Assembly (NCBI GenBank): GCA_951406725.2 | Contig: OX597822.1 | Span: 12,586,001-12,650,000 of the forward strand | From: Octopus vulgaris | Taxonomy: Eukaryota | DNA: 64,000 nucleotides | Reading direction: 5' to 3' | Notes under the pieces: generated by a model | What the model was told of the DNA's origin: nothing | Database searches by the model: none | Seen by the model: only the letters and a program-made list of their open reading frames with translations | Part shown: in pieces, positions 6,501 to 53,524 of the stretch | How positions within the stretch are numbered: the first letter of the stretch is position 1 | Layout: each line of letters opens with the position of its first letter | Made by a program: the position numbers and the translations under genes

Positions 6501-6890
6501 AGATTGTTTTCCTAACAGGACTGCCATGTTATGTTGGCAAACAATCTTTACTCCAAAGTACTGTGGCCGAATATCTCTCCTTGTGAGATTTAAAAATAGT
6601 AGTTTGCTAAATTATAGATCAGGAACTATATATTTCGAACGGGAATTAGGCCGCGCCACCTCTAACCGAACAATTATTCTGTGCTGATGAAGGGAAATAA
6701 CTCGGAAATCGTGATACACAGATATTGTTTGAGATGAGAAGTGGTGCTAGATTCCCTTGTTCAAAAATATAAGGGCTCAGATCGTGTCGTATAACCAGCT
6801 GGAGACGATGTCACTTGGGGCTAAATTACAGAAACATTCAACCTAAACCAAGGCCACCATGTTATGTTGGCAAACAATCTTTACTCAAAA
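6501..6890 (+). mobile_element. Retrozyme-like / non-autonomous PLE unit, 333 bp period
   Basis: ccatgttatgttggcaaacaatctttactc occurs at 6524 and 6857. A short inverted copy lies at 6501-6517. Contains a hammerhead and no ORF. Confidence 0.55.
6679..6721 (+). ncRNA. Type-I hammerhead ribozyme with canonical core
   Basis: ctgtg-CTGATGA-agggaaataactcg-GAAA-tc gt ga-TA-cacag. Stem I is ctgtg/cacag; stem II is weak. Confidence 0.7.
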
Positions 6891-7607
6891 TTTATCCTCG
6901 TTTATCATAGGCGTTAAATAAAATAGTACTAGAAGAATAACAAAACATACGTTTTACTCCAAGACCGCAAGTGTTCTTGGGCGACCATTTAAAGTCCAAA
7001 CAAAACCTTTAACTTTTCATTGACTTGTGTTACTACAGAACAATTCGTAATAATCGAAACACGGTACACAATGAGCCTACCGTGTTGACTCGGACCAGTT
7101 GTTATGCATAATCTTTTAAATCCGTAAAAGTGTTTCTGACTTAGAATTCCTTCGAACATGAGGCGGCAACTCGACAGCGAAGAACAGTCAACTTTATACT
7201 AAAATGGTACCTTATTTTATCGACTAAGGATAAAAGTCAATGCTATCCGCCGACGGATATGAACTCAGAATGAAACGTTTCCGGAACGAATACCGAAAGC
7301 CAAATCGCCACATGTAATTCTATGTATGTACTTATGTATGTATGTATGTATGTATGTATGTATATATGTATTCACGTATGCAAACGTGTGTTATGTATGC
7401 GGCGTTATATTATTCAGTGCGTGTATATATATATATGTATAAAATATACATTTACATATATATAAATAATTGTATACACATACGTATATACGTATATATA
7501 CACGTACATGTATATATATACGCACATACTAATAAAAATTTACACACATAGGTATATACATGTGGACGTATATATACATTCATACATGCATACAAACATA
7601 TATACAT

Positions 7608-7681
<74 letters not shown>

Positions 7682-8128
7682 ATGTCTGTGTGTGCATAAA
7701 TTTACATAAATATGTTAGAATAGAATAGGTCATCCATTCTCATGTTTCCATTGTTGTTCAGCTTTACGTGTGTCTCTGCACCATTATGAAATTGTGAAAA
7801 CACTGGCTTAAATACAAGTGCTGTTGTATAGATTCCTCACCATTATCTGCTAAATCCTTTCTTTAAATCTGACAGACTTGTATAATAAATTTCTTTTGTG
7901 CCACTGCACCGAATGCTTGCGCCTTTAGAGGCAGCTTCTGTGAGTTCACGAAAGCAATGACTGGTACCCTGGCGGAAATATTTTACTGCAACCCTGGGCC
8001 GACCGACACATTGTGTATGAATTTCGTAGAGAGAAACGGTGCAGAAAAGGTCAACCTAGTGGTTAAGGTGCTGTACTCGTTCCAAGACCGGGTGGTGCAT
8101 TGCGTTCTTGAACAAAACACTTCATAAT

Positions 8129-8345
8129 AAAGATTGTTTGCTAACATAACATGAAAGTCCTGGTTTGGGACTAATGTTGCTGTAATTTAGCCCCAGGAGA
8201 TATCGTCACGATGTCTCCTGGGGCTAAATTACAGCAACATTAGTCCTAAACCAGGACTGCCATACTATGTTGGCAAACAATCCTTACTACAAAGTACTGT
8301 TGCTGAATATCTCTCGTTGTGAGATTTAGAAATAGTAATTTTCTA
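8129..8345. mobile_element. Fold-back copy (hairpin 8129-8285, centre ~8207) of the 6501-6890 family
   Basis: Arms ggactaatgttgctgtaatttagccccaggaga / tctcctggggctaaattacagcaacattagtcc. The right arm matches 6804-6880, then 6524-6610. Confidence 0.7.
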
Positions 8346-8706
8346 AAATACTTCATCTCAAGTTGGTCCGCGGTCACTTCGACACCTGACACGTGGTACA
8401 CCGTGAACCAGTTCAGGTAATGTCGATATGGAGGGAGTAAGCTAATGTGCAGCATGAACATTTGATCAGTATAAACAGATCATTTGTGAAGGTCATTTGG
8501 AAAAAGATGAACGCTCATTCGTCGTCTTCGACGAGAGAGTCCCGCTGGCCACTACACATTCTTTATTTTCTCTCCTTGTTTATTTCTGGGGAAGAGCGTA
8601 GGCTCCAAACGTTAAAGAATTTTTCACTTCCCGAGCCTTATACTAATCCATGTTTATTATCTACACCACCTGTCTTCGTCATTTGCTTTTTTGTGAATCC
8701 TCCCTA

Positions 8707-8784
<78 letters not shown>

Positions 8785-8819
8785 TGTGGGTGTCTGTGTG
8801 TGTGTATATATGTATAAGT

Positions 8820-8863
<44 letters not shown>

Positions 8864-8886
8864 ATATATATATATATATATGTATG

Positions 8887-8936
<50 letters not shown>

Positions 8937-9090
8937 AAGAATTCACAACAACCTCGAATCCACAAGTGTAAACAAGAGAGACAGAGAAAGGCAGAAACAA
9001 GGAAAATGCCACTTATATTTGAACACTATACAAATATTCTTTTAAAAAACTTTTCTTTTAATTTTTCTAAATTTAATTATTTAATCGTTA

Positions 9091-9127
9091 CAGTTGAAGA
9101 GGTCTCAAATGACTGAAACTGGTACTG
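9091..9127 (+). ncRNA. Hammerhead motif, U3 variant, in a PLE-type tail (~8960-9180)
   Basis: cag-TTGAAGA-ggtc tcaaat gact-GAAA-ctgg-TA-ctg. Sister copies at 22147-22182 (-), 22377-22412 (+) and 27706-27741 (+) read TTGAAAA. Confidence 0.6.
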
Positions 9128-9188
9128 AAATGCTCTTTATAAAATTATTTTAGCACTTTCTATCTTGACTTGTTTTTTCATATATATA

Positions 9189-9481
9189 TTACATAGCAAG
9201 TGATTTGATCTGAGATCGTGTGCTGGAACGAAAACAGTTGCAGCGTGGAAGGTGTTTGTAAGCCATTTAAGAAACACACAAAAGCCGTTCGATTCACTTC
9301 AACATTTAAATTTAATTTGTCAAAATATTTTCGTCGCTATAAGACCGCGACCTGTTCACTGACAAAAATCCGTGCTGCATCTCTCAATATTTTGACAAAT
9401 TAAACTTCAATGTTGAAGTGAATCGAACGGCTTTTGTGTGTTTCTTAAAAGGCTTACAAACACCTTCCACGCTGCAATTGT

Positions 9482-9482
<1 letters not shown>
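9189..9482. mobile_element. Fold-back PLE-type terminus (arms 9233-9329 and 9386-9482)
   Basis: ~97 bp inverted arms flanked by (TA)n. A diverged relative lies at ~16580-16770. Confidence 0.7.
9317..9365 (-). ncRNA. Type-I hammerhead with swapped G3-C8 core pair
   Basis: ttgtca-GTGAACA-g-gtcgc ggtcttata gcgac-GAAA-atat-TT-tgacaa. Stem I is 6 bp, stem II is 5 bp, and the stem III loop is palindromic. Confidence 0.65.
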
Positions 9483-9515
<33 letters not shown>

Positions 9516-11886
9516 CATATATGTGTGTGTATTAGTCACCGTAAAGTAGCGGTTCCGATAGTTGAAGTACTAGGCAATAAAATTAATACTGGGGCCGTAT
9601 TTTTTGACTAAACCTTTTAATGGTGCAGCATAATTACAGCCCAATGATGGAATTGAGTGAAAGGTATTGAGAAAAACAATATGTTAGCTTTCTTAAACGA
9701 AATGATATAATATGCCTTGGGAGGTGTCACGACTGGATTTCTTTTAATCATAAGCTTGCTGGATTATGGTTTATCTAGAGCGAATACCGACGATACCAGC
9801 CAACATTAACAACGGTATCAAAGACAACAATCTCTCGTGTCTCAAGCTCTTCTTATACCAAAACATGTGAGACAAACACTACTACAGAAGCATTCTCTAA
9901 CTCAGGACAACAACGGATTTTAAAGGTTACTGCTTAATCTACTGAAAATAAAAGCCAAAATCACACTTCAAAATAAGATTTGAGCATCTTTAAAAACTGA
10001 AAATTGAAGATACATTGGGAAATCTTGTTTGAAATAAAACGTCTGAAGAAAATATTGTAATAGCGGCCATGTTGAGAATTCTTTTGATCAAAGGTCTGTC
10101 GATCAAAGCTGACCTGGACTTAAACAACAACCCCAATAACAACTGCAACAAACACCAAAGGTACCTCACAGTATTATTGTTCTTCTAATGTCCCCCACCC
10201 TACAAATCTCGTTCGTCTCTTTGTTTATTTTATTGTTTCTTTCTTCATTTGCATTCGTCCTCCTCCCCTTCCCCCTACCGAATTTATTCTGGTTTTAATT
10301 TCTGTCTAATCCTTTCTTCTTCACTTCCTTCCTATCGTTCTTTTCTTCCTTCTTCCTTTCTACTCTTTCTTTAAAATCTCTTCCCTCTTTTTCACTTTCC
10401 TTTTCAATTGATTGATTAATTGATTAATAACAACACGTTGTCTTCCTTTTCTTCTCGTTTCATTTTGCTGTTGTTGTTGTTCTTCTTCTTCTTCTTGATG
10501 AAGAAATCAAGCAAAATGAAAGATCATACGTATGCACTCACACGTAAACAGACACACGCGTACGCATGCACAGAAGCACACAAGCACAAACGCAATCACA
10601 TTGTGTATGTATATATATGTGTGTGCACGTGTATGCGTGTGTGTTTATACACACATTTTTAACACAGTTATCCATATATGTATGTATGTATGTATGTATG
10701 TATATATACATGTGTGTGTATATATATATACATACATATATAGGCATATATATATGTATGTATGTATATATATAGATATCAATATATTTTATATATATCA
10801 TATATATATTTTATATATATCATATTATATATATATTTACATATAGGTGCATATGTGAGTGTGTGTATATATATACACGTATATGTGTGTGTATGCATAT
10901 ATGTATGCGTACCAACAAATATGGATGAGAGTGGGAGGTAGAAATTTGTAGAATAGAAGTAATTCAGGATTACAGCTATATTGAAAATATGTCGACCGTT
11001 GAGATTCATCGAAATTCATTTCTTAAAGCAAAAATTTGATCGTTTGACAGGGAAGAGAATACATGATCATCTCCCTTTGTTTAATATTTATTTCTTTATA
11101 TTTTGAAGCACCAGCGCTGACATGATTAAATGGATTTTGTATAATGTTACAATGATTAAAAGCAGTTCAAAGCGACAACGCTGACAGGCAAATCATCTCC
11201 GTTGCAAACGGTTTCCAATATCCAACTAAAATATTAAGCAATGCTCTTCAAAATGCCTAAATAGCGAAATGTTCATTTATAAAAACTCAATTATCAATGG
11301 CAGCCCGCTTTCATGTTATGTACTTTTTCCGTTACAATGAATTTCATTCATAAAAACTTAAATGTTACTGGTCCGTCCTCGCATTGTGTAATCCTTCCGC
11401 CATTTTTGTCATTATGAAGCGGTTATATTAGACATTCCAAATCTGAGTTTAATTGTACCATTTAAGACACATTACATTTTCGATGTCTATGTCGGTGCCT
11501 GGACATTCTATGCCACTACCCATCCCCACTCAATTTGAGAAATTACTTTGATTTCTAAATCATATTAATATCCTCTGAGGGTTAGGAAATCTATCACATC
11601 TGAAAAGACTAACGATTATGGATTAAATATCATATTCTCTCACAGGATTATCTTTTAGTTGCACCTTCTAAGTGACTGGACACTTCTTTTAGCTTCTTCT
11701 GGTGGGGATCCGAGGAAATATATATATATCTATACTTATATATATATTTATTTATTATTTTGCACATTACTTAATCATCGTTATATGTTTTATTTTATAT
11801 TTAATCTTTCTATAATAGGTAATTTTCTAGATGGTATAATTTAATTTTTCATTATTGAATTGATTAAAGGTGGTTTTGTTTCTAAT

Positions 11887-26166: not shown

Positions 26167-26549
26167 ATTAAAATTACATCTACATATACAGAATCGTGTC
26201 TTATGCATGCTGGGAATATCTCTGTTACACAACGAATTGATAATAGTTTCAAATTTTGATACAAAAACAGCAATTTGGATGCATTTAAAGCTTTCGGGAT
26301 GACCGTCTGATGTAGACGTGGTAGATGTCTTACATCGAAAGGATGTAAGGCAAAGTGGACATCAAAACGTAGACACTGATGCTTATGGCTGCTTCAAATT
26401 CTTAGGACTTACTCTGACTCTGACCCCAATCTATTCGTTCGTTCTGTGCAAAGCGTTGTGATGGCAGAATATATAGGATAACATTTTCGAAAAAATTTTA
26501 TGAATGGTCAGCATATTAAAAAAATACCTTCAAACGTTAAATTTATAAG

Positions 26550-26685
26550 CAACTTATAAACAAGGGCAAAAGAAAAAAAATTCAATGCCAAATATGCCGA
26601 AATAGTCTTATATGGTTATTGACGATTAAGTCTATTTCGGCATATTTGGCATTGAATTTTTTTTCTTTTGCACTTGCTTATAAGT

Positions 26686-26687
<2 letters not shown>
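26550..26687. repeat. Fold-back hairpin (~60 bp arms) ending at (TA)n
   Basis: caacttataa...aattcaatgccaaatatgccgaaatag / ctatttcggcatatttggcattgaatt...ttataagttg. Confidence 0.8.
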
Positions 26688-26732
<45 letters not shown>

Positions 26733-26895
26733 GTTATCGCCATATTAATATGGCATTCTTATAGACATAAGAATAATCGCTGCCGCTGGTCAGCTCCATG
26801 AGGCCACCGCCTTAAGATAGCTATTGATACACGATCTGTATCCATTATAACCTTCGAACAATGGAGGTCAGCCGCTTCACACTGCCAGTCCGACA

Positions 26896-26937
26896 GCTAC
26901 AGACGCGTTTCGGGGTATTGCCCCTTTTCAATGTAGC
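26896..26937 (-). ncRNA. Type-I hammerhead, U3-A8 core, GUC cleavage triplet
   Basis: gctaca-TTGAAAA-gggg caata cccc-GAAA-cgcg-TC-tgtagc. Confidence 0.8.
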
Positions 26938-27259
26938 GCAGTCAGACCCCGCAGGTGTCGCCACTGACGTCTCTGTTCGAAGGTTTCTATTTACCTAGCT
27001 TCAGTGGAATACATCCACTTGTTTTCAATAATAGAAGTATTAAAATTACTAAGTCTCTATAAAAGAGATTACGGCAGCGTTTACTGGAAATTAATTGTTA
27101 TCGCCATATTAATATGGCATTCTTATAGACATAAGAATAATCGCTGCCGCTGGTCAGCTCCATGAAGCCACCGCCTTAAGATAGCTATTGATACACGATC
27201 TGTATCCATTATAACCTTCGAACAAGGGAGGTCAGCCGCTTCACACTGCCAGTCCGACA

Positions 27260-27301
27260 GCTACAGACGCGTTTCGGGGTATTGCCCCTTGTCAATGTAG
27301 C
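27260..27301 (-). ncRNA. Type-I hammerhead, U3-A8 core (second tandem copy)
   Basis: gctaca-TTGACAA-gggg caata cccc-GAAA-cgcg-TC-tgtagc. Differs from the first copy only at the free N7 position. Confidence 0.8.
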
Positions 27302-27834
27302 GGGGTCTAATATATATATATATTTCTTTCTCTCTTCTTCCTCTCCGCCACCTCCTTCCTAACTTTACTACTATTGCTGTTTAGAATAACACCTACGCAA
27401 TATTTATAATACATTCAAAAGAGATGTCTCAAGAATGCAATCACTACTACCATGCACAAGTCATTTTCAGGGCACTTGACCATTTAACATTCTATGACTA
27501 TCATGGGACTCCCGCATTCTCCTCCGCAGCATCCGTCTCCTCCGCCTCCTCCTCCTCCTCCTCCCCCTCTGCTTTCTTCTTCCCTGCCAAGAATTCGCAT
27601 CTACCTCGAACCCACAAGAGTAAACGAGAGAAATAGACGGTTAGAAACAAGACAAAAGGCCCCTTATATTTGAATAGTATGCAAATATTCTAAAATCTCT
27701 TCTTACAGTTGAAAAATTCTCAATGATTCAAACCGGTACTGAAATGTTTTTTATAAAATTATTTTAGCATTTTCTACCTTGATTTTTTTCCATATACATA
27801 CATACATACATACATACATACATACATACATACA

Positions 27835-28110: not shown

Positions 28111-28204
28111 CACGCATATATATATATATATATATAAATATATATATAATAAGTATAGGAAAGAATGGAGCTGAACGAAGATTTAACAAAATTCCTTTAT
28201 TTTA

Positions 28205-28288
28205 TTTTCGACATATGTTTCGAAGTCTGCAAAATCCCTAATTCCGAATGAATAAGGAATCCATTATGCAGCTTTCTCTTCAGGAAAA
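28205..28288 (-). ncRNA. Type-I hammerhead in the PLE pseudo-LTR
   Basis: ttttc-CTGAAGA-gaaagctgca...tgcagacttc-GAAA-catatg-TC-gaaaa. The + copy starting at 29871 is split by a SINE. Confidence 0.8.
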
Positions 28289-28844
28289 TCCAGGAACTTC
28301 TTTCGCCAACAAAATGCACAACAAGTTTTTAGATGACTGCTCACGAGGAGCCCATAGCGATAATGATAAATAATGTCTATTTATAGGGGGTGACGTCAGA
28401 TTGGTTGAAAGTAGGAGAAACTGGCAGTTAAAATAGTTCAAGGGTTCAATCGAGGTTGGAGAAGGAAGGTAAAAGAATATTAAGGTGAGGGAATGTATTC
28501 TGTATGACTGGTGTTTATATTTGATTTATTTTATGAATGAGTGCTCGTATGTATGAGTGTGTATATTTTCCTTAATGTGTGTGTGTGTGTCTGTGAATGC
28601 GTGATTGTGTGTGTAGAAGGCAGACAGAAAATTAACGGTCAGGAGGTGAAAGGACTGTGTCTGTGTGTTCGAATGTGTCGCCCACAATAGTAATGACAAG
28701 AGACAAGGGTACTACTGGAATTGGTTGTAGTTCTTAGCAATTATGTGAAAGTCTTATAAACAAAAGGGATGAGATATCACAAATTAATTTTGTAGGAAAT
28801 CCAGGGTTTATCTATATTAGACTTCATAGGTATGAGTGAAAGGT

Positions 28845-29746
28845 ATGCTTTTTCCAGTGTAAGCATCTGAAAGATCTCTCGACAATCTAGTTTACTACTT
28901 GGCCTCGGGCCAACAGAATATGAAAAAGTTCGGAATTACAGAGGGCACAGATTTTTCTGCCCTTATCAAACGGTAAGGACACCGACAATATTGACCATTC
29001 CAGCGTAAAAGTTGAATTTGCGTTCTTCAAACGCCAGACTTATTTGCTTAGCCCTGTGGTGTGCTGTTTACTCTTATCTCGGAACGTAGAAAAATGGTTT
29101 GAGACCCTCGTGGCTAATTTAGAGGAGGTTGCGCCAATATAGAGGTAGACATCGGATCCAGTAGAAATTTTGCACTGGTAAGTGGTGTTTCTAATTTTGG
29201 AGTTATTTGATAAGAACCTTAATCTATTGGGATTAGTTTCCGATACTAATACAACGATCTTATTTCTATGATGGGTGTAAAAATTACTGCTGGATTTGGG
29301 CATGATACTATTCATCCTATTTTCATTACTATTTAAGGCAATATCACCTGCACATTCCCTGTTTCTGGGAATGCTGTGATTGTTATTGTCCGTAAAACTA
29401 CTGTTGTTAAGAACGCTACTACTATTATTGTTGAGACCCCCTCCGTTAATGTCCTGGCCGGTGCTCTTATCCTTATTATTATTGCTAACGCCAATGCTGG
29501 TATGAAGGCTGCTAATATCTGTGCTATTTCTATTATTATTATTATTACTATATGTTACGTTGGAATTTGACAGGGCGGTGTCTCTGCTCATGGGTGATGA
29601 GACCTTATTTAGCAGCTTATTGTTATGGGAGGCAATTATCTGTGAGAGATTTTTAGTATTTGAGAAAGCAATCCTTACTTTGCGCGAATTTATAGTGGAG
29701 TAATATCTTGAATTTCTGGGAAAATTCCTGGCAATGTCTTGGCGAA
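28845..29746 (-). pseudogene. Penelope GIY-YIG endonuclease / ORF C-terminus remnant
   Basis: FPRNSRYYSTINSRKVRIAFSNTKNLSQIIASHNNKLL, an Asn/Ser-rich linker, TTYQCKI...YLYIGATS...RVSNH...TGLSK*VW, then WSIL...KICALCNSE...CLH. Contains in-frame stops. Confidence 0.85.
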
Positions 29747-29945
29747 ACTTTCAACCAATCTGACGTCACCCCCTATAAATAGACATTATTTATCATTATC
29801 GCTATGGGCTCCTCGTGAGCAGTCATCTAAAAACTTGTTGTGCATTTTGTTGGCGAAAGAAGTTCCTGGATTTTCCTGAAGAGAAAGCTGCATAATGGAC
29901 TCCTTATTCATTCGGAATTAGGGATTTTGCAGACTTCGAAACATA

Positions 29946-30335
29946 TACTCTTTACTCTTACTCTTTTACTTGTTTCAGTCATTTGACTGTGGCCATGCTG
30001 GAGCACCGCCTTTAGTCGAGCAAATCGACCCCGGGACTTATTCTTTGTAAGCCCAGTACTTATTCTATTGGTCTCTTTTGCCGAACCGCTAAGTGACAGG
30101 GACGTAAACACACCAGCATCGGTTGTCAAGCAATGCTAGGGGGACAAACCTAGACACACAAACACATACACACACATATATATACATATACATGACAGGC
30201 TTCTTTCAGTTTCCGTCTACCAAAATCCACTCACAAGGCATTGGTCGGCCCGAGGCTATAGCAGAAGACACTTGCGCAAGATGTCACACAGTGGGACTGA
30301 ACCCGGAACCATGTGGTTGGTAAGTAAGCTGCGCC
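29946..30335 (-). mobile_element. SINE family A inserted in the PLE hammerhead stem III
   Basis: Flanks ca-tat|...|tat-gtc versus intact catatgtc in the other arm. The head has a short internal deletion. Confidence 0.85.
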
Positions 30336-43471: not shown

Positions 43472-46433
43472 TCAGGATTTGGGCCCCAAGGCCCATTCGA
43501 GCAGAGAGTTATTGTTTGCGGAGACATATCCGGGTGTGGGTGGTTTGTCCCAGACTGTTTGAAGGAATTTGTCCAAAGACTTCTTGAATTTTGTGTGGTC
43601 AGTTTCTTTTTTGACGTGTCCTGGTGTAATGTTGAAGAGAGCGGGTCCAACTGAGGTGAAATAGTTGTGCCGTATTGTCGTTATGTGATGCGATTTAGAT
43701 TTTTGTTGTGGACGGATGGAACGTGGTCCAAGCCTTGGATGTATTTTGAAGGTGATGCCAACATCATTCGGACAGTGCTGATGGAATATTTTCCACATCT
43801 TACAGATAATGTAGCGTTCACGGCGTCGTTGGAGTGAATACAGTTTCAGCTTCTCTAGTCTACCCCAGTAGTCAAGGTCTGACATGCCATCTATCTTTTT
43901 TGTGATTGACCTTTGGGGAGCTTCAATTCTCATAATATTTTGTTTTGTGTAGGGAGACCACAGTGGACAGCAGTATTCAAGGTGGGGTCGGGCAAAAGTG
44001 GAGAAGAGAAGGATAATAGTGTGGGAATCTCTCGACTGGAAGGTTCTGAGAATCCAGGAACACGTTCTGCGGGCCATGTCAACTTTGCTGCTTATATGTG
44101 TAGCCCAGCTTATGTTGTTGTCCACTGTTACTCCCAAGTCTCTGATGCTGTTGGATGCCATGAGAATTTCTCCAGAAGGAAGAGAGTATGGGAGTTTCAG
44201 AGCGTCCTCCCTTCCAAAGTGGATCAGTTCGAATTTGTCTTCATTTAGCAACATGTTATTCTTTTCCGCCCATTGGACAACAGCCAGTAGGTCTGACTGG
44301 AGGCTTATTCGGTCATCCACGCCATTGATGACCTTCTGGAGCTTGGAATCATCAGCGAAGGTTCTGATGTTACTGTGTTTGATGGTGTCAGTAATATCAT
44401 TTATGTAGATGATGAAGAGAAGTGGGCCCAACACAGTGCCTTGTGGGACACCACTGCTGACTTTGGCTGGGCTGGATTTGATTCCTTCGACTACAAAATG
44501 TTGGGTTCTGTTAGACAGGAAGCACTTGAACCACTGCAGCAGCTTTCCAGTGACACCAATATTGGACAGTTTCTCAGAAGGATCTTATGATCAACCCTGT
44601 CAAAGGCCTTGCTGAAATCAAGGTAGATGACATCAGTGTTGGAACCCTCTCCCAAGGCTCTCAAAATGTCATCAAAATGATGCAGTAGCTGCGTCAGGCA
44701 ATCTCTCCCATTACGGAATCCATGCTGGTTGGGGTTCAGCATATTATGACTCTCAAGGAAGTGAGTCATACGCGATCTCAGTACTCTCTCAAATACCTTA
44801 ATGATATGAGAGGTGAGTGAGATTAGACGGTAATTCACGGCAAGCGATTTGTTTCCTTTTTTGAAAACTGGGACAACAGACTGGGATAGAAGGTCTTCTG
44901 GTATATATCCAGCATCCAGTGAGTTCCGCCACAGATTGGCTAGAGGGGGTGCAAGTTGGTTTTGACACATCTTCAAGACACAAGCAAGGAACCTATCGGG
45001 ACCTACTGCTGAATTATGCTTCATTTCCTTTATTGCTGCTAAGACATCAGGAGCGTCAAAGGTTATGTCTGATAAAGTGTATTGGGGAGTAACATCACTG
45101 ATACAGCCCAGATCAGTCATATCAGGATTGCTGAAAACAGAGCAATATTGTTTCTGCAATATCTCTCCCATGGTTTTGGCATTGTCTTGAAGAGTACTAT
45201 TTTCATCAATCAGAGGGCCAACAGTAGAACCAGTGACTCTGTGTTTTTTTGCAAATGAAAAGAACACTTTGGGATTGAGTTTGATCTTCTCAATGGCCCA
45301 GGCCTCTTCAGCTCTTCGCTGACTATTGATGATAGACATCATGTTGTTTTGGAGTTTATGTTTTTTAATCTCTAGCGACGAGATGGCAGTCAGGTTGGTG
45401 TGTTGCTGTTGACAGTATTTCAGCTTGTTGATTTTTTTGTTAATTCTTTTAATTTTCCTGAGGAGAGATTTTCTATTTCTAGGGATTCGACACTTAGATT
45501 TGTTTGCAGATCTTAATGGGGTGTGTCTTGCACATATGTTCGTAATGGTGTCTACAAGTGACTGCCAGGACTTTTTGATGTTAGTGGGTGTGTATGTGTG
45601 CGTGAAGGACCAATCGACTTGTGCAAGATCATTATTGATCGCTTCCCAGTTTGCATTGTGGAAATCCATAGTGTCAAATGGATGAACAGGAGGGATGACA
45701 TTTGTTTTGCATTTTGGCCAGTGAAATCTCAGATCACAGAGAACCATGTCATGATCGGAGAGTAGGGTTTTCTCCACTGCAATATTGTGGATAGTATCAG
45801 TGTGATTGCTGAAAATTAAGTCTAAGACGTTTTTATGACATCTCGTTGGTTCGACTACCAGTTGGGACAGGAAGAAATCATCCATGAAGTCAAGAAGCGA
45901 TTCCACTGCCTCCCTGTCAGGGGTTGAGAGAGAAGAACTTGGCGGCAGACTGTTTGTAGACCAGTCAACCCCGGGAAGGTTGAAGTCTCCCATCATTAAA
46001 ATGTTGTCAGGTTGACACTGCTGAATGAAACACTTTATGCTGTTGAGGCATTCCTTGAAGCATGGTAGGGGCGTTTGGGGTGGTCTGTAAAGCCCAACTA
46101 CTGTTAAGTTGTTGGTTTGACTGAATACAGCGACTGCTTCGCAGTATCCATTGCAAAATATGTTCATGGCTTCTGTTGAGAATGAATCATGAACATAAAT
46201 GGCAGTCCCACCCTTTCTTCTGCCAGTACGATCAGCACGAATGGTTTTGAAATTTTGAAGAAAGGGATGTGGTTTGGATGGGCCTCGACCCAGTTCTCCA
46301 GGTATCTTATCTTCCATTTTTGTGTATTGGTGGAAGGGTTGATGCCTTGGGCATTAAGTAGAAATGTTGAGGCGAGAGTGGATGGTTTTAATTGTTTTGG
46401 TGATTTGTTTATTTGATTGCTTTTTAATGGCAT
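43472..46433 (-). pseudogene. LINE ORF2: APE endonuclease plus reverse transcriptase (two frame breaks, at ~46260 and ~44575)
   Basis: APE motifs LLNAQG, RADR..RKGGTAIYV, GLYRPP, MGDFNLP, LDLIFSN and SDHD. RT motifs NYRLISLTS, QHGFR, DFSKAFD, GVPQGTVLGPLLF and FADD; also LYSLQRRRER. The APE ETW region appears deleted. Confidence 0.92.
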
Positions 46434-51313: not shown

Positions 51314-52918
51314 GTTTCAGCTCAGAGCTGCGGCCATGCTGTGCACCGCCGTTTTGTGCTACACTGTTATTGCGACGAACCTCGTCTGTTATGTGGCACT
51401 TGGTGAAGAATGGAGTTTGATACAGCTACTCTCATTTGCACCTCTTGCCGTGAGATAGGTTCATCTGGGACTCTTGACAGGAAGATGTCCAGTTTTGATT
51501 TAAAAACCGCTACATCTACTTTGTGCAAGTTCCTCAGACTCTTTGGGAGAATATTAAAAAGCTGTGGGCCCTTGAAACCCAGGCTGTTGCAGAAGCTGGT
51601 CCTGAAGCGTGATGGCATTGCTGGGATCTTTGGCACTATGCAGTGTCGTCCCGTTCTAGCATTGGTGTAGCTTACAATGCCAAAATTTGGCACAATTCCT
51701 TCAAGGATCTTCCAGACATATATTACTGCATACCACTCCCGTCTTCTCTCCAGGGAGTAGAGTCTTAGCTGTTTCAGCCTTTCCCAGTAGCTGAGCTGTT
51801 GCAAAGAGACGATCTTCTTTGTGAATCTTCTCTGGATTGCTTCAAGGTTTGCTGTTAATTTTACACTGGTGGGTGACCATAGCTGTGAACAGTAATCCAG
51901 GCGACTGAGGACGAATGTCCGCCAGAGGACCATCATGGTTTCCTTATCTCTGGTTCTGAATGTTCTTAGAATCCACCCAGCCAGTCGTCTGCACTTTGTC
52001 GCCATCCTGGTAATGTGCACTTGGAAAGAGGTATCATCACTCATGTCGATACCCAGGTCCCTCACAGATTTAGGCTCTGGGATTGAAATTCCCTGTGGAC
52101 CGGTGTATCCTGTAAGTTTAATATTCAGTTTTGGATGCTGGTAGCGCAGGGCCTGGAATTGTTCAGCATTAAACTGCATATTATTATCCTCAGCCCATCT
52201 GTAGATTGAGTCCAACTCCTGCTGCAGGTGTGCAACATCGCTGGGGTTCTGTATTTTCTGCGAGACTTTCGTATCGTCTGCATAGCTGGCCAGAGTGGCT
52301 ATCCGGGCATTTGAGGGCATATCTGAGAGGGCCACTATAAAAAGCAGTGGTCCCAAGACAGTGCCCTGTGGAACACCGCTCACTATTTGTGTGTTCATAG
52401 AGGTGGTTCCATTAACCACTACTGTCTGACTCCTATCTTTCAGGATGTCATGCAACCACACTCCAAGTTTTCCAGCTATGCCGAGGTCACGTAGTTTGTG
52501 GCATATCATACATTGATCCACCTTGTCAAAAGCTTTTGCAAAATCAAGGTAGATTACGTCCACATTTGATTTGTTGAGTAACTGCCTCAACACCCAGTCA
52601 TAATGCTGTAAGAGCTGGGTCAGGCAGCTCCTACCTGGTCGAAAACCATGTTGGGTATTACTCAGCAAGTTATTTTCCTCAAGGAATGCGATTAGTTTCT
52701 TTCTGACTATCCTTTCCATGACTTTGCTGATGTGTGAAGTCAGAGAGTTAGGCCAATAGTTTTTGGCATCTGCTCTACTTCCCCCTTTATGTATTGGGAA
52801 TATTATTCCCTCCTTCAGCTTGCTTGGCAGTTTGCCATTCACAAGAAAGCTCTGGAAGAGAATCTTGAGGGGTTTTGCCAGGGCATGCTTACACGCTTTG
52901 AGGAGGATGGCTGGGAAA
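51295..52918 (-). mobile_element. Young 5'-truncated CR1-group LINE with an A-tail, inserted in (TA)n
   Basis: Uninterrupted RT frame. The 3' tail ggcggtgcacagcatggccgcagctctgagctgaaact is followed by poly(A). Confidence 0.93.
51367..52917 (-). CDS. LINE reverse transcriptase, N-terminally truncated open frame (~516 aa)
   Basis: PIHKGG, QHGFRPGRSCLTQLL, YLDFAKAFD, GVPQGTVLGPLLF, YADD and LYSLERRR. The ORF-track start lies in the TA tract and is not a real start. Confidence 0.85.
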   Translation of the reverse strand, partial: FPAILLKACKHALAKPLKILFQSFLVNGKLPSKLKEGIIFPIHKGGSRADAKNYWPNSLTSHISKVMERIVRKKLIAFLEENNLLSNTQHGFRPGRSCLTQLLQHYDWVLRQLLNKSNVDVIYLDFAKAFDKVDQCMICHKLRDLGIAGKLGVWLHDILKDRSQTVVVNGTTSMNTQIVSGVPQGTVLGPLLFIVALSDMPSNARIATLASYADDTKVSQKIQNPSDVAHLQQELDSIYRWAEDNNMQFNAEQFQALRYQHPKLNIKLTGYTGPQGISIPEPKSVRDLGIDMSDDTSFQVHITRMATKCRRLAGWILRTFRTRDKETMMVLWRTFVLSRLDYCSQLWSPTSVKLTANLEAIQRRFTKKIVSLQQLSYWERLKQLRLYSLERRREWYAVIYVWKILEGIVPNFGIVSYTNARTGRHCIVPKIPAMPSRFRTSFCNSLGFKGPQLFNILPKSLRNLHKVDVAVFKSKLDIFLSRVPDEPISRQEVQMRVAVSNSILHQVPHNRRGSSQ

Positions 52919-53524
52919 TATATATATATATATATATATATCAATATATATATATATATATATATATATCAAGGAATATATATATATATATATATTACTA
53001 TTTCATTTCATTTATTACTATTTCATTATGTATACGTTAATCCTATGTCTGGAAGAAATAGCCAATTGTCACTGACATAGTGTATCCTTTCATTGGCAAT
53101 CTCCGCTATGATTCCATCACCTCCAGCCTTCCTCGCGGATCTCTGCTTGTTTATAATATTCACCGTGAATTTCTGTGAATGATAACTGGTTGTTTGTGAT
53201 AAGATATTTATATGATGTGTACGAATGTCCACTGGCTGTGATGAGAAAATTCGTACGAGATTGTCAGTAAATCTGATGTGATATATTTCGGCATGTAAAG
53301 ACATATATACACGCATTTATATATATATACGTGAGTGTGTGTACATACTTCCATATATTCACACATATACACTCACACACACATACATACATTTGTGAAT
53401 ATGTACATGTGTATATGTATATATGTGTAAATATATATGCATACGTAGATATAGGCAAATAGAATTTTCTTTACACTTATGCACATAATGCATATATGTA
53501 TATATATATGCGTGTATATATGTA

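Follow-up and report, generated by a model that had tools for sequence, protein, structure and literature searches.

The locus described here lies in a 64,000-nt stretch of Octopus vulgaris DNA (the window, in what follows). In our preferred reading, to which we give a probability of roughly 0.6, it is a truncated copy of an ORF-less tandem family of about 360 nt that carries the scars of Penelope-type elements (PLEs). The family is likely a non-LTR retrozyme. Its RNA is predicted to cut itself and form circles, and a PLE protein supplied in trans likely reverse-transcribed and inserted it. Evidence for this reading comes from the ribozyme fold, the anatomy of the insertions, and the distribution of sequence variants within and between them.

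The locus, its family, and the ribozyme fold

The features of the locus are as follows:

26730..27309, minus strand: single-arm insertion of 1.6 units of the 364-nt repeat, 5'-truncated at about 27309; its 3' end is the family's P end
27260..27301, minus strand: hammerhead 1, type I, core U3-U-G-A-C7-A8-A9; predicted cut after 27266
26896..26937, minus strand: hammerhead 2, type I, architecture of hammerhead 1 but with A7; predicted cut after 26902
26902..27265, minus strand: predicted cut-to-cut monomer of 364 nt, 43% GC, no ORF; fold z = -8.45
26941..26985, minus strand: 5' strand of the rod, which prolongs stem I
26848..26895, minus strand: 3' strand of the rod; its counterpart at 27212-27259 pairs with 26941-26985 within the monomer
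27028..27090, minus strand: PLE-type tail of about 60 nt, between the two recurrent 3' ends of the family, P (about 27090/26730) and T (about 27028-27031)
26739..26754, no strand: perfect palindromic hairpin of 16 nt, immediately inside the P end (read from the sequence)
26688..26729, no strand: (TA)n target tract at the 3' end of the insertion
27310..27323, no strand: (TA)n tract at the truncated 5' end

An earlier note on this DNA had reported two U3-A8 hammerheads 364 nt apart on the minus strand, and both are there as type I motifs, with U3 at 27295 and 26931 and C17 at 27266 and 26902. Each has a 6-bp stem I, a 4-bp stem II, and a palindromic stem III, together with the type I core residues U4, G5, A6, A9, G12, A13, A14, A15.1, U16.1, and H17 and a Watson-Crick 3-8 pair that is U3-A8 where the consensus has C3-G8. 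The near-identity of the copies was confirmed as well, since 26728-26943 and its counterpart 364 nt away share 211 of 216 positions. The five differences fall at 26802, 26862, 26927 (which is N7), 26939, and 26940; inside the hammerheads, the two ribozymes differ at N7 alone (C versus A), just as had been claimed. The extra helix noticed beside the ribozyme is likewise real, with 26985-26941 pairing with about 26895-26849 (z = -7.45; 0 of 200 shuffles equally stable). The unit is indeed without an ORF, the longest stop-free runs being 49 codons in sense and 65 in antisense, also when read round a circle. When both strands of the 64-kb window were scanned under relaxed type I criteria, no motifs other than these two came up, and permitting a long stem II added two further, unrelated motifs.

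Other parts of the description hold less well. The ribozymes had been called fully paired, and stem III is palindromic as stated, but it comprises only 2 bp with a 2-nt loop and has a predicted probability of 0.0 in the monomer. Both motifs are present, but they are not two intact ribozymes: the upstream one (27295) is 5'-truncated and without the rod's 5' strand, its stem I having a predicted probability of about 0.3 versus about 1.0 in the second, and the locus holds 1.6 units rather than two. Nor is this the best candidate for study, as it is an ordinary truncated family copy, and longer arrays elsewhere are better test substrates; the flagged single locus is of no special importance. For the cut-to-cut monomer, 0 of 100 shuffles folded as well, and the long rod joins its two ends. 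For the full 580-nt transcript, the dimeric fold is predicted to be about 10 kcal/mol worse than the monomeric one and is not the predicted equilibrium fold of this locus.

The survey for further copies that had been proposed revealed a dispersed family. Specifically, in the 2.8 Gb (227 contigs) searched, the exact ribozyme motif had 343 matches, all 100 of those listed being U3-A8, and a 26-nt 3' motif had 553; an initial 41-nt pattern that included a rare allele had only four. A first-look search gave 2,479 candidates, and among the best 40, which were scored, long matches were 93-98% identical. Unit spacings across copies are 343-365 nt, at 43% GC, and at least three U3-A8 subfamilies exist: subfamily A (about 95-98% identity to the window copy, 364 nt), subfamily B (about 88%, 362-363 nt), and subfamily C with more distant forms (about 75%). 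A C3-G8 version with identical stems had no match in the genome pattern search. A sister family, E (L341-L370; 2,634 first-look candidates), has a 353-nt unit, the canonical C3-G8 core in 47 of 49 motif rows (overlapping records counted), a shorter tail of about 30 nt, and head-to-head anatomy too. It aligns with subfamily C at 59% over 542 nt, which is more than one unit (E-value 8e-15), and it folds with a like rod-closed architecture (z -8.86). Because the U3-A8 units thus have a homologous C3-G8 sister, the 3-8 pair covaries inside one lineage.

A targeted Rfam scan of the unit found no hammerhead family; this blank is uninformative, since Rfam missed the canonical C3-G8 sister as well. 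Consensus-core descriptors and Rfam miss whole retrozyme families. Across the whole window, the 150 Rfam matches listed, of 236, were rejected as microsatellite noise.

Covariation was assessed in 25 aligned copies, 3 of 28 selected segments having been dropped (L123, L024, and the L128 fold-back arm). Stem I is 98.7% paired, three of its six pairs having changed in both partners; the inner pair of the palindrome is GC in 12 copies, UA in nine, and AU in four, and is never broken. Over stems I and II and the palindrome, two-sided change occurs in 58 cells versus 24 shuffled, and pairing is 90% versus less than 40% in slid controls. Counted as pairs with two-sided change, there is no excess (10 versus 9.4 in shuffles; 223/500), the 25 rows amounting to about four lineages. 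U3-A8 is the core pair in every distinct ribozyme segment recovered (138 in total), and in 123 the stem III palindrome is CGCG, CUAG, or CAUG. The covariation of stems I and II and the persistence of a palindrome in stem III indicate selection on the fold; a dimer-type hammerhead fold under selection is supported by these comparisons, across about four independent lineages only.

Insertion scars and the copied template

Insertion anatomy was read from every insertion listed on contigs C1-C3 by the 3' motif (59 records, 111 arms), in unit coordinates where u1 is 27302 and the cut falls after u37. The great majority of arms (99/111) end at P (u197-221) or T (u268-284), although both windows together make up 11.5% of the unit, and 75 of those 99 then run into (TA)n. 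The family thus has two fixed 3' ends, separated by about 60 nt, and where head-to-head pairs are informative, nearly all (30 of 32) combine a P end with a T end. Target-site duplications of 12-14 bp were found at six of eight non-(TA) insertions tested, longer than the 4 bp that retrozyme duplications are to exceed. The ends do not lie at ribozyme cleavage sites; they are of PLE type, about 175 and 235 nt downstream. The window copy has one arm, is P-ended, and is flanked by (TA) tracts. With their partial tandems, inverted 5' arm, one-end tail, and microsatellite target, the units look like PLE-mobilised sequences, and their scars are the PLE pattern set out in the anatomical account of PMC8557442. 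In the same genome, a family of intact PLEs with a 775-aa ORF shows like scars, namely two ends, (TA)n, and head-to-head arms, in at least 6 of 10 pairs. The earlier note had opposed "retrozyme" to "PLE", but both terms apply to an ORF-less unit with PLE scars. Within pairs, an excess of T arms end a little before P (9 versus 4.4 expected, P = 0.035), which weakly fits twin priming.

The arms also speak to the template that was copied. In a set of 91 arms (20 of the 111 were dropped, 12 for non-canonical ends and eight as duplicated or complex), 21 are longer than one unit, and 44 of the 52 that reach the cleavage site extend more than 10 nt beyond it. If primed at P or T, a linear cleaved monomer would not allow copying beyond u38, a point that these 44 arms pass. 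Divergence is lower within insertions than between them, both in subfamily A (1.8% versus 2.9%) and in subfamily B (1.3% versus 3.5%). Substitution markers within loci are almost wholly concordant; for example, concordant/discordant counts were 33/0, 33/0, 50/1, and 83/0 in subfamily A and 56/0, 56/0, and 28/0 in subfamily B. Furthermore, of the rare variants, 15 are carried by every tandem unit and by the inverted arm as well, versus one in the tandem arm only. This uniformity, the concordant markers, and the 15-to-1 split favour a monomer bottleneck such as a circle. Read-through and one haplotype per insertion fit a circular monomer template; uncleaved multimers fit the read-through equally well.

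Some variants are less orderly. The array with the most units (4.6) has a change in stem II that is present in 4/4 tandem units and absent from the inverted arm; in three further cases, rare variants occur in some but not all tandem units, and in five, in one tandem unit plus the inverted arm. Local duplication of DNA, conversion, or templates of mixed multimers are suggested by such patterns. What looked like discordance within loci at u126/127, 93/94, 161/162, and 220-234 was set aside as largely strand-dependent gap placement. No mapped arm has its 5' end exactly at the cut site. Ends near it (u33-47, a window whose edges were chosen after viewing the data) number 10 versus 3.0 expected, with a comparable excess at u298-312 (8 versus 2.0), and a 5'-end pile-up as proof of in vivo cleavage was rejected as unspecific on that account. 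Finally, four runs guessed to be RNA gave 59, 9, 20, and 28 contigs, mostly from diverged family members; one 361-nt "goes back" joint (depth 3.7) was seen, which tandem DNA gives too, and these contigs, which cannot show circles, were not counted as evidence.

The preferred reading may be laid out as a cycle of five steps. Multimeric transcripts would be produced first, after which two U3-A8 hammerheads would pair by their palindromic stem III and excise the 364-nt monomer, whose ends the rod is predicted, from fold and covariation, to hold together. The monomer would then be ligated into a circle, by analogy with the RtcB ligation discussed in PMC7229834. Next, a PLE RT/GIY-YIG protein would nick (TA)n DNA and prime cDNA at the two AU-rich sites about 60 nt apart, and priming once per target strand could yield head-to-head arms and 12-14 bp duplications. 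Lastly, the RT would cross the ligation junction of a putatively circular template, giving single-haplotype copies of more than one unit, such as the 1.6-mer in the window.

The chief alternative dispenses with the circle: the family would be a non-autonomous PLE deletion derivative, copied from uncleaved linear multimers of a few tandem master arrays maintained by DNA duplication, with a hammerhead that is slow or merely trims 5' ends. It accounts for cleavage-site read-through just as well, and it draws further on the traces of local duplication or mixed templates, the disfavoured dimer fold at equilibrium, the weak in vitro activity of PLE-type dimers (PMC4209133), and the inactivity of eight of the nine dimers in a vertebrate retrozyme preprint (bioRxiv 10.64898/2026.07.22.740005). 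We nevertheless hold it to be rather unlikely, in that rare variants found mostly in every unit and in the inverted arm (15 versus 1) would demand frequent monomer bottlenecks, the rod joining the monomer ends is conserved down to 59% identity, and a linear-only lineage whose arrays are short (at most 4.6 units), with a mean arm below one unit, should presumably shrink.

A tentative and somewhat doubtful proposal is that the family is an old viroid-like circle lineage that parasitises Penelope machinery by shape instead of shared sequence, the P/T pairs being twin priming on a circle. It builds on the retention of the circle fold, rod included, across about 40% divergence and the C3-G8/U3-A8 swap, and on the fact that no local PLE shares the ends. 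If true, twin priming of a PLE RT on a circle would explain the PLE tail and inverted arm generally.

The search for a partner element

The preferred reading of a retrozyme inserted in trans calls for a separate PLE. The earlier note had allowed that all other copies might be attached to PLE ORFs as ordinary pseudo-LTRs, and no such attachment was found in 190 records (about 141 distinct stretches). The organisation of autonomous EN+ PLEs, with an RT and GIY-YIG ORF between pseudo-LTRs, is absent from the units examined. Four ORF-bearing PLE families (L148, L274, L272, and L321) have no detectable sequence in common with the unit and bear C3-G8-type ribozymes of their own. We assign these four to the RT/GIY-YIG PLEs, and to any clade, from sequence motifs; Pfam profiles matched neither three of the four PLE-type ORFs nor the fragment in the window. 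Apparent partner hits in the four families were rejected as nested copies or chance (33 nt, E 0.086; 37 nt, E 0.023). Two widely spaced ribozyme pairs were likewise discarded as leads to a partner: the 5.8-kb gap on C2 is a LINE-like insertion into a unit, and in the 4,480-bp pair on C15, the unit sits inserted inside a duplicated, broken PLE ORF.

That the units are orphan pseudo-LTR fragments of an unsampled autonomous PLE, with tandems arising from truncated PLE insertions, is distinctly improbable. Mapped units are preceded by another unit of the array, by an inverted arm, or by flanking DNA, and in none of them by an ORF 3' end common to the copies; PLE ORF fragments in the records are downstream, on the opposite strand, interrupted by the unit, or, in the seven gaps read, set apart by their own ends, flank, or (TA)n, the sole 5.8-kb inter-ribozyme gap being the LINE-like insertion. 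The notion does draw on the PLE-type ends and targets, on protein searches that scored the best 150 of 6,503-10,654 candidates each and so can miss families, and on the finding, among 57 retrozyme families of Xenopus, that 24 resemble known repeats, for the most part PLE termini (10.64898/2026.07.22.740005). Weakest of all, and highly improbable, is that the hammerhead is a relic, a once-active motif riding passively in a SINE-like or satellite repeat: within-insertion divergence of 1.3-1.8% does suggest subfamilies older than the near-identical 775-aa PLE family, but compensatory changes in stems I, II, and III and in the 3-8 pair are hard to obtain without selection at an RNA stage.

Several of the PLEs encountered deserve mention in their own right. 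The intact family with the 775-aa RT/endonuclease ORF (L321, G000:C1:27838500-27848400, and many more) is very young, its copies being 99-100% identical; its 4,271-bp unit has an upstream 454-codon frame and a pLTR hammerhead with a U4C core change and a GUAC palindrome. Another young family, L272 (G000:C8:3328000-3337900), has a unit of about 5.2 kb whose 3' region is mostly microsatellite, and it therefore likely seeds microsatellites while spreading. In the window itself, a PLE that is truncated and inserted head-to-head occupies 28140-29946. It contains part of a GIY-YIG-like ORF (29040-29750, minus) and, at 28283 (minus), a C3-G8 hammerhead of its own whose stem II is long; relatives elsewhere have ORFs of about 900 aa (L147-L150).

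Relation to known systems and neighbouring elements

By its letters, the unit falls within the sequence-level definition of metazoan non-LTR retrozymes given by Cervera & de la Pena (2020, PMC7229834). Like the retrozymes described there, it is an ORF-less tandem unit within 150-450 nt and below 50% GC, with a type I hammerhead whose helices I and II measure 6 and 4 bp and whose helix III is short and palindromic, target-site duplications above 4 bp, and a stable self-paired monomer fold. Unlike them, the octopus family has a U3-A8 core throughout, and instead of forming long arrays it is mostly scattered as short insertions that have inverted arms and fixed ends of PLE type. The claim of a retrozyme thus stands insofar as this is a non-coding tandem retroelement of the non-LTR retrozyme type, but its core is not novel and its ends are of PLE type.

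The core had been called non-canonical, and U3-A8 does differ from the C3-G8 consensus, but it is an already known natural covariation (PMC3088659; PMC4209133). Such ribozymes were described as active in vitro by Perreault et al. (2011, PMC3088659), whose account does not mention a tandem retroelement lineage in which U3-A8 is fixed and which has a C3-G8 sister family. A U3-A8 core was also reported in the Schistosoma Cercyon minimal hammerheads (PMC4209133); those motifs are minimal and mostly single, whereas the unit's ribozyme has canonical helix sizes inside a long rod. Partial tandems, an inverted 5' copy, a one-end tail, and microsatellite bias are established PLE anatomy (PMC8557442), and the family resembles PLEs with pseudo-LTR hammerheads in all of these, its inverted arm being 5'-truncated (PMC4209133, PMC8557442); it differs from them in its lack of an ORF and in a tail of about 60 nt versus 30-40. 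Chlamydomonas has non-autonomous units of PLE type, e.g., MRC1, that come with pLTRs and as multicopy insertions (PMC4209133; PMC8557442), and copying beyond one unit was proposed by the authors of PMC4209133 to be circle-templated. Reliance on PLE machinery, as proposed here, was argued for vertebrate retrozymes from co-occurrence and pLTR similarity in bioRxiv 10.64898/2026.07.22.740005, where one of nine predicted dimers tested showed cleavage; the evidence here consists of insertion scars in an invertebrate genome, pLTR similarity not having been found.

U3-A8 cores and non-LTR retrozymes are each already published, and PLE hammerhead variants that cleave as dimers have been reported; what is added here is that U3-A8 is fixed in this family while its sister has C3-G8, and that insertion scars, as counted, tie an ORF-less retrozyme to PLE-type insertion. 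Our literature search, which covered main texts, found no report of a U3-A8 tandem retrozyme lineage, of cephalopod retrozymes, or of comparable insertion-scar evidence, though the family may already be listed elsewhere. The identity of the enzyme that moves animal retrozymes and a possible circular origin of PLE tandems are named as open questions in PMC7229834, PMC8557442, and the 2026 preprint. The octopus family supplies a 364-nt substrate; its insertions, which number in the hundreds, have scars indicative of PLEs, and a young, intact PLE is present in the same genome. The U3-A8 and C3-G8 sister families offer a natural comparison of the catalytic speed that a retrozyme needs.

The window and genome hold further elements. 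At about 9359 (minus) in the window lies a hammerhead-like motif with a G3-C8 core pair, a 7-bp stem I, and a palindromic AUAU stem III; a near-identical motif at about 5883 (minus) of L277 is also present, and the two may represent a third natural 3-8 variant family. Adjoining the insertion's (TA)n, an imperfect inverted repeat with arms of about 70 bp (26530-26690) may represent a short member of another small family, inserted head-to-head, and a similar palindrome occurs in L088 near another hammerhead-like motif. Long, near-perfect hairpins at 8158-8256 (99 nt) and 1-412 (206-nt arms) are probably fold-back insertions or MITEs. LINE-like ORFs of the AP-endonuclease/RT kind lie at 43472-46353 and 51367-52968 (minus). 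Finally, an apparently intact two-ORF LINE-like element (515 aa and 1,140 aa; L127, G000:C2:114465500-114475400) is inserted into a retrozyme unit immediately upstream of the ribozyme.
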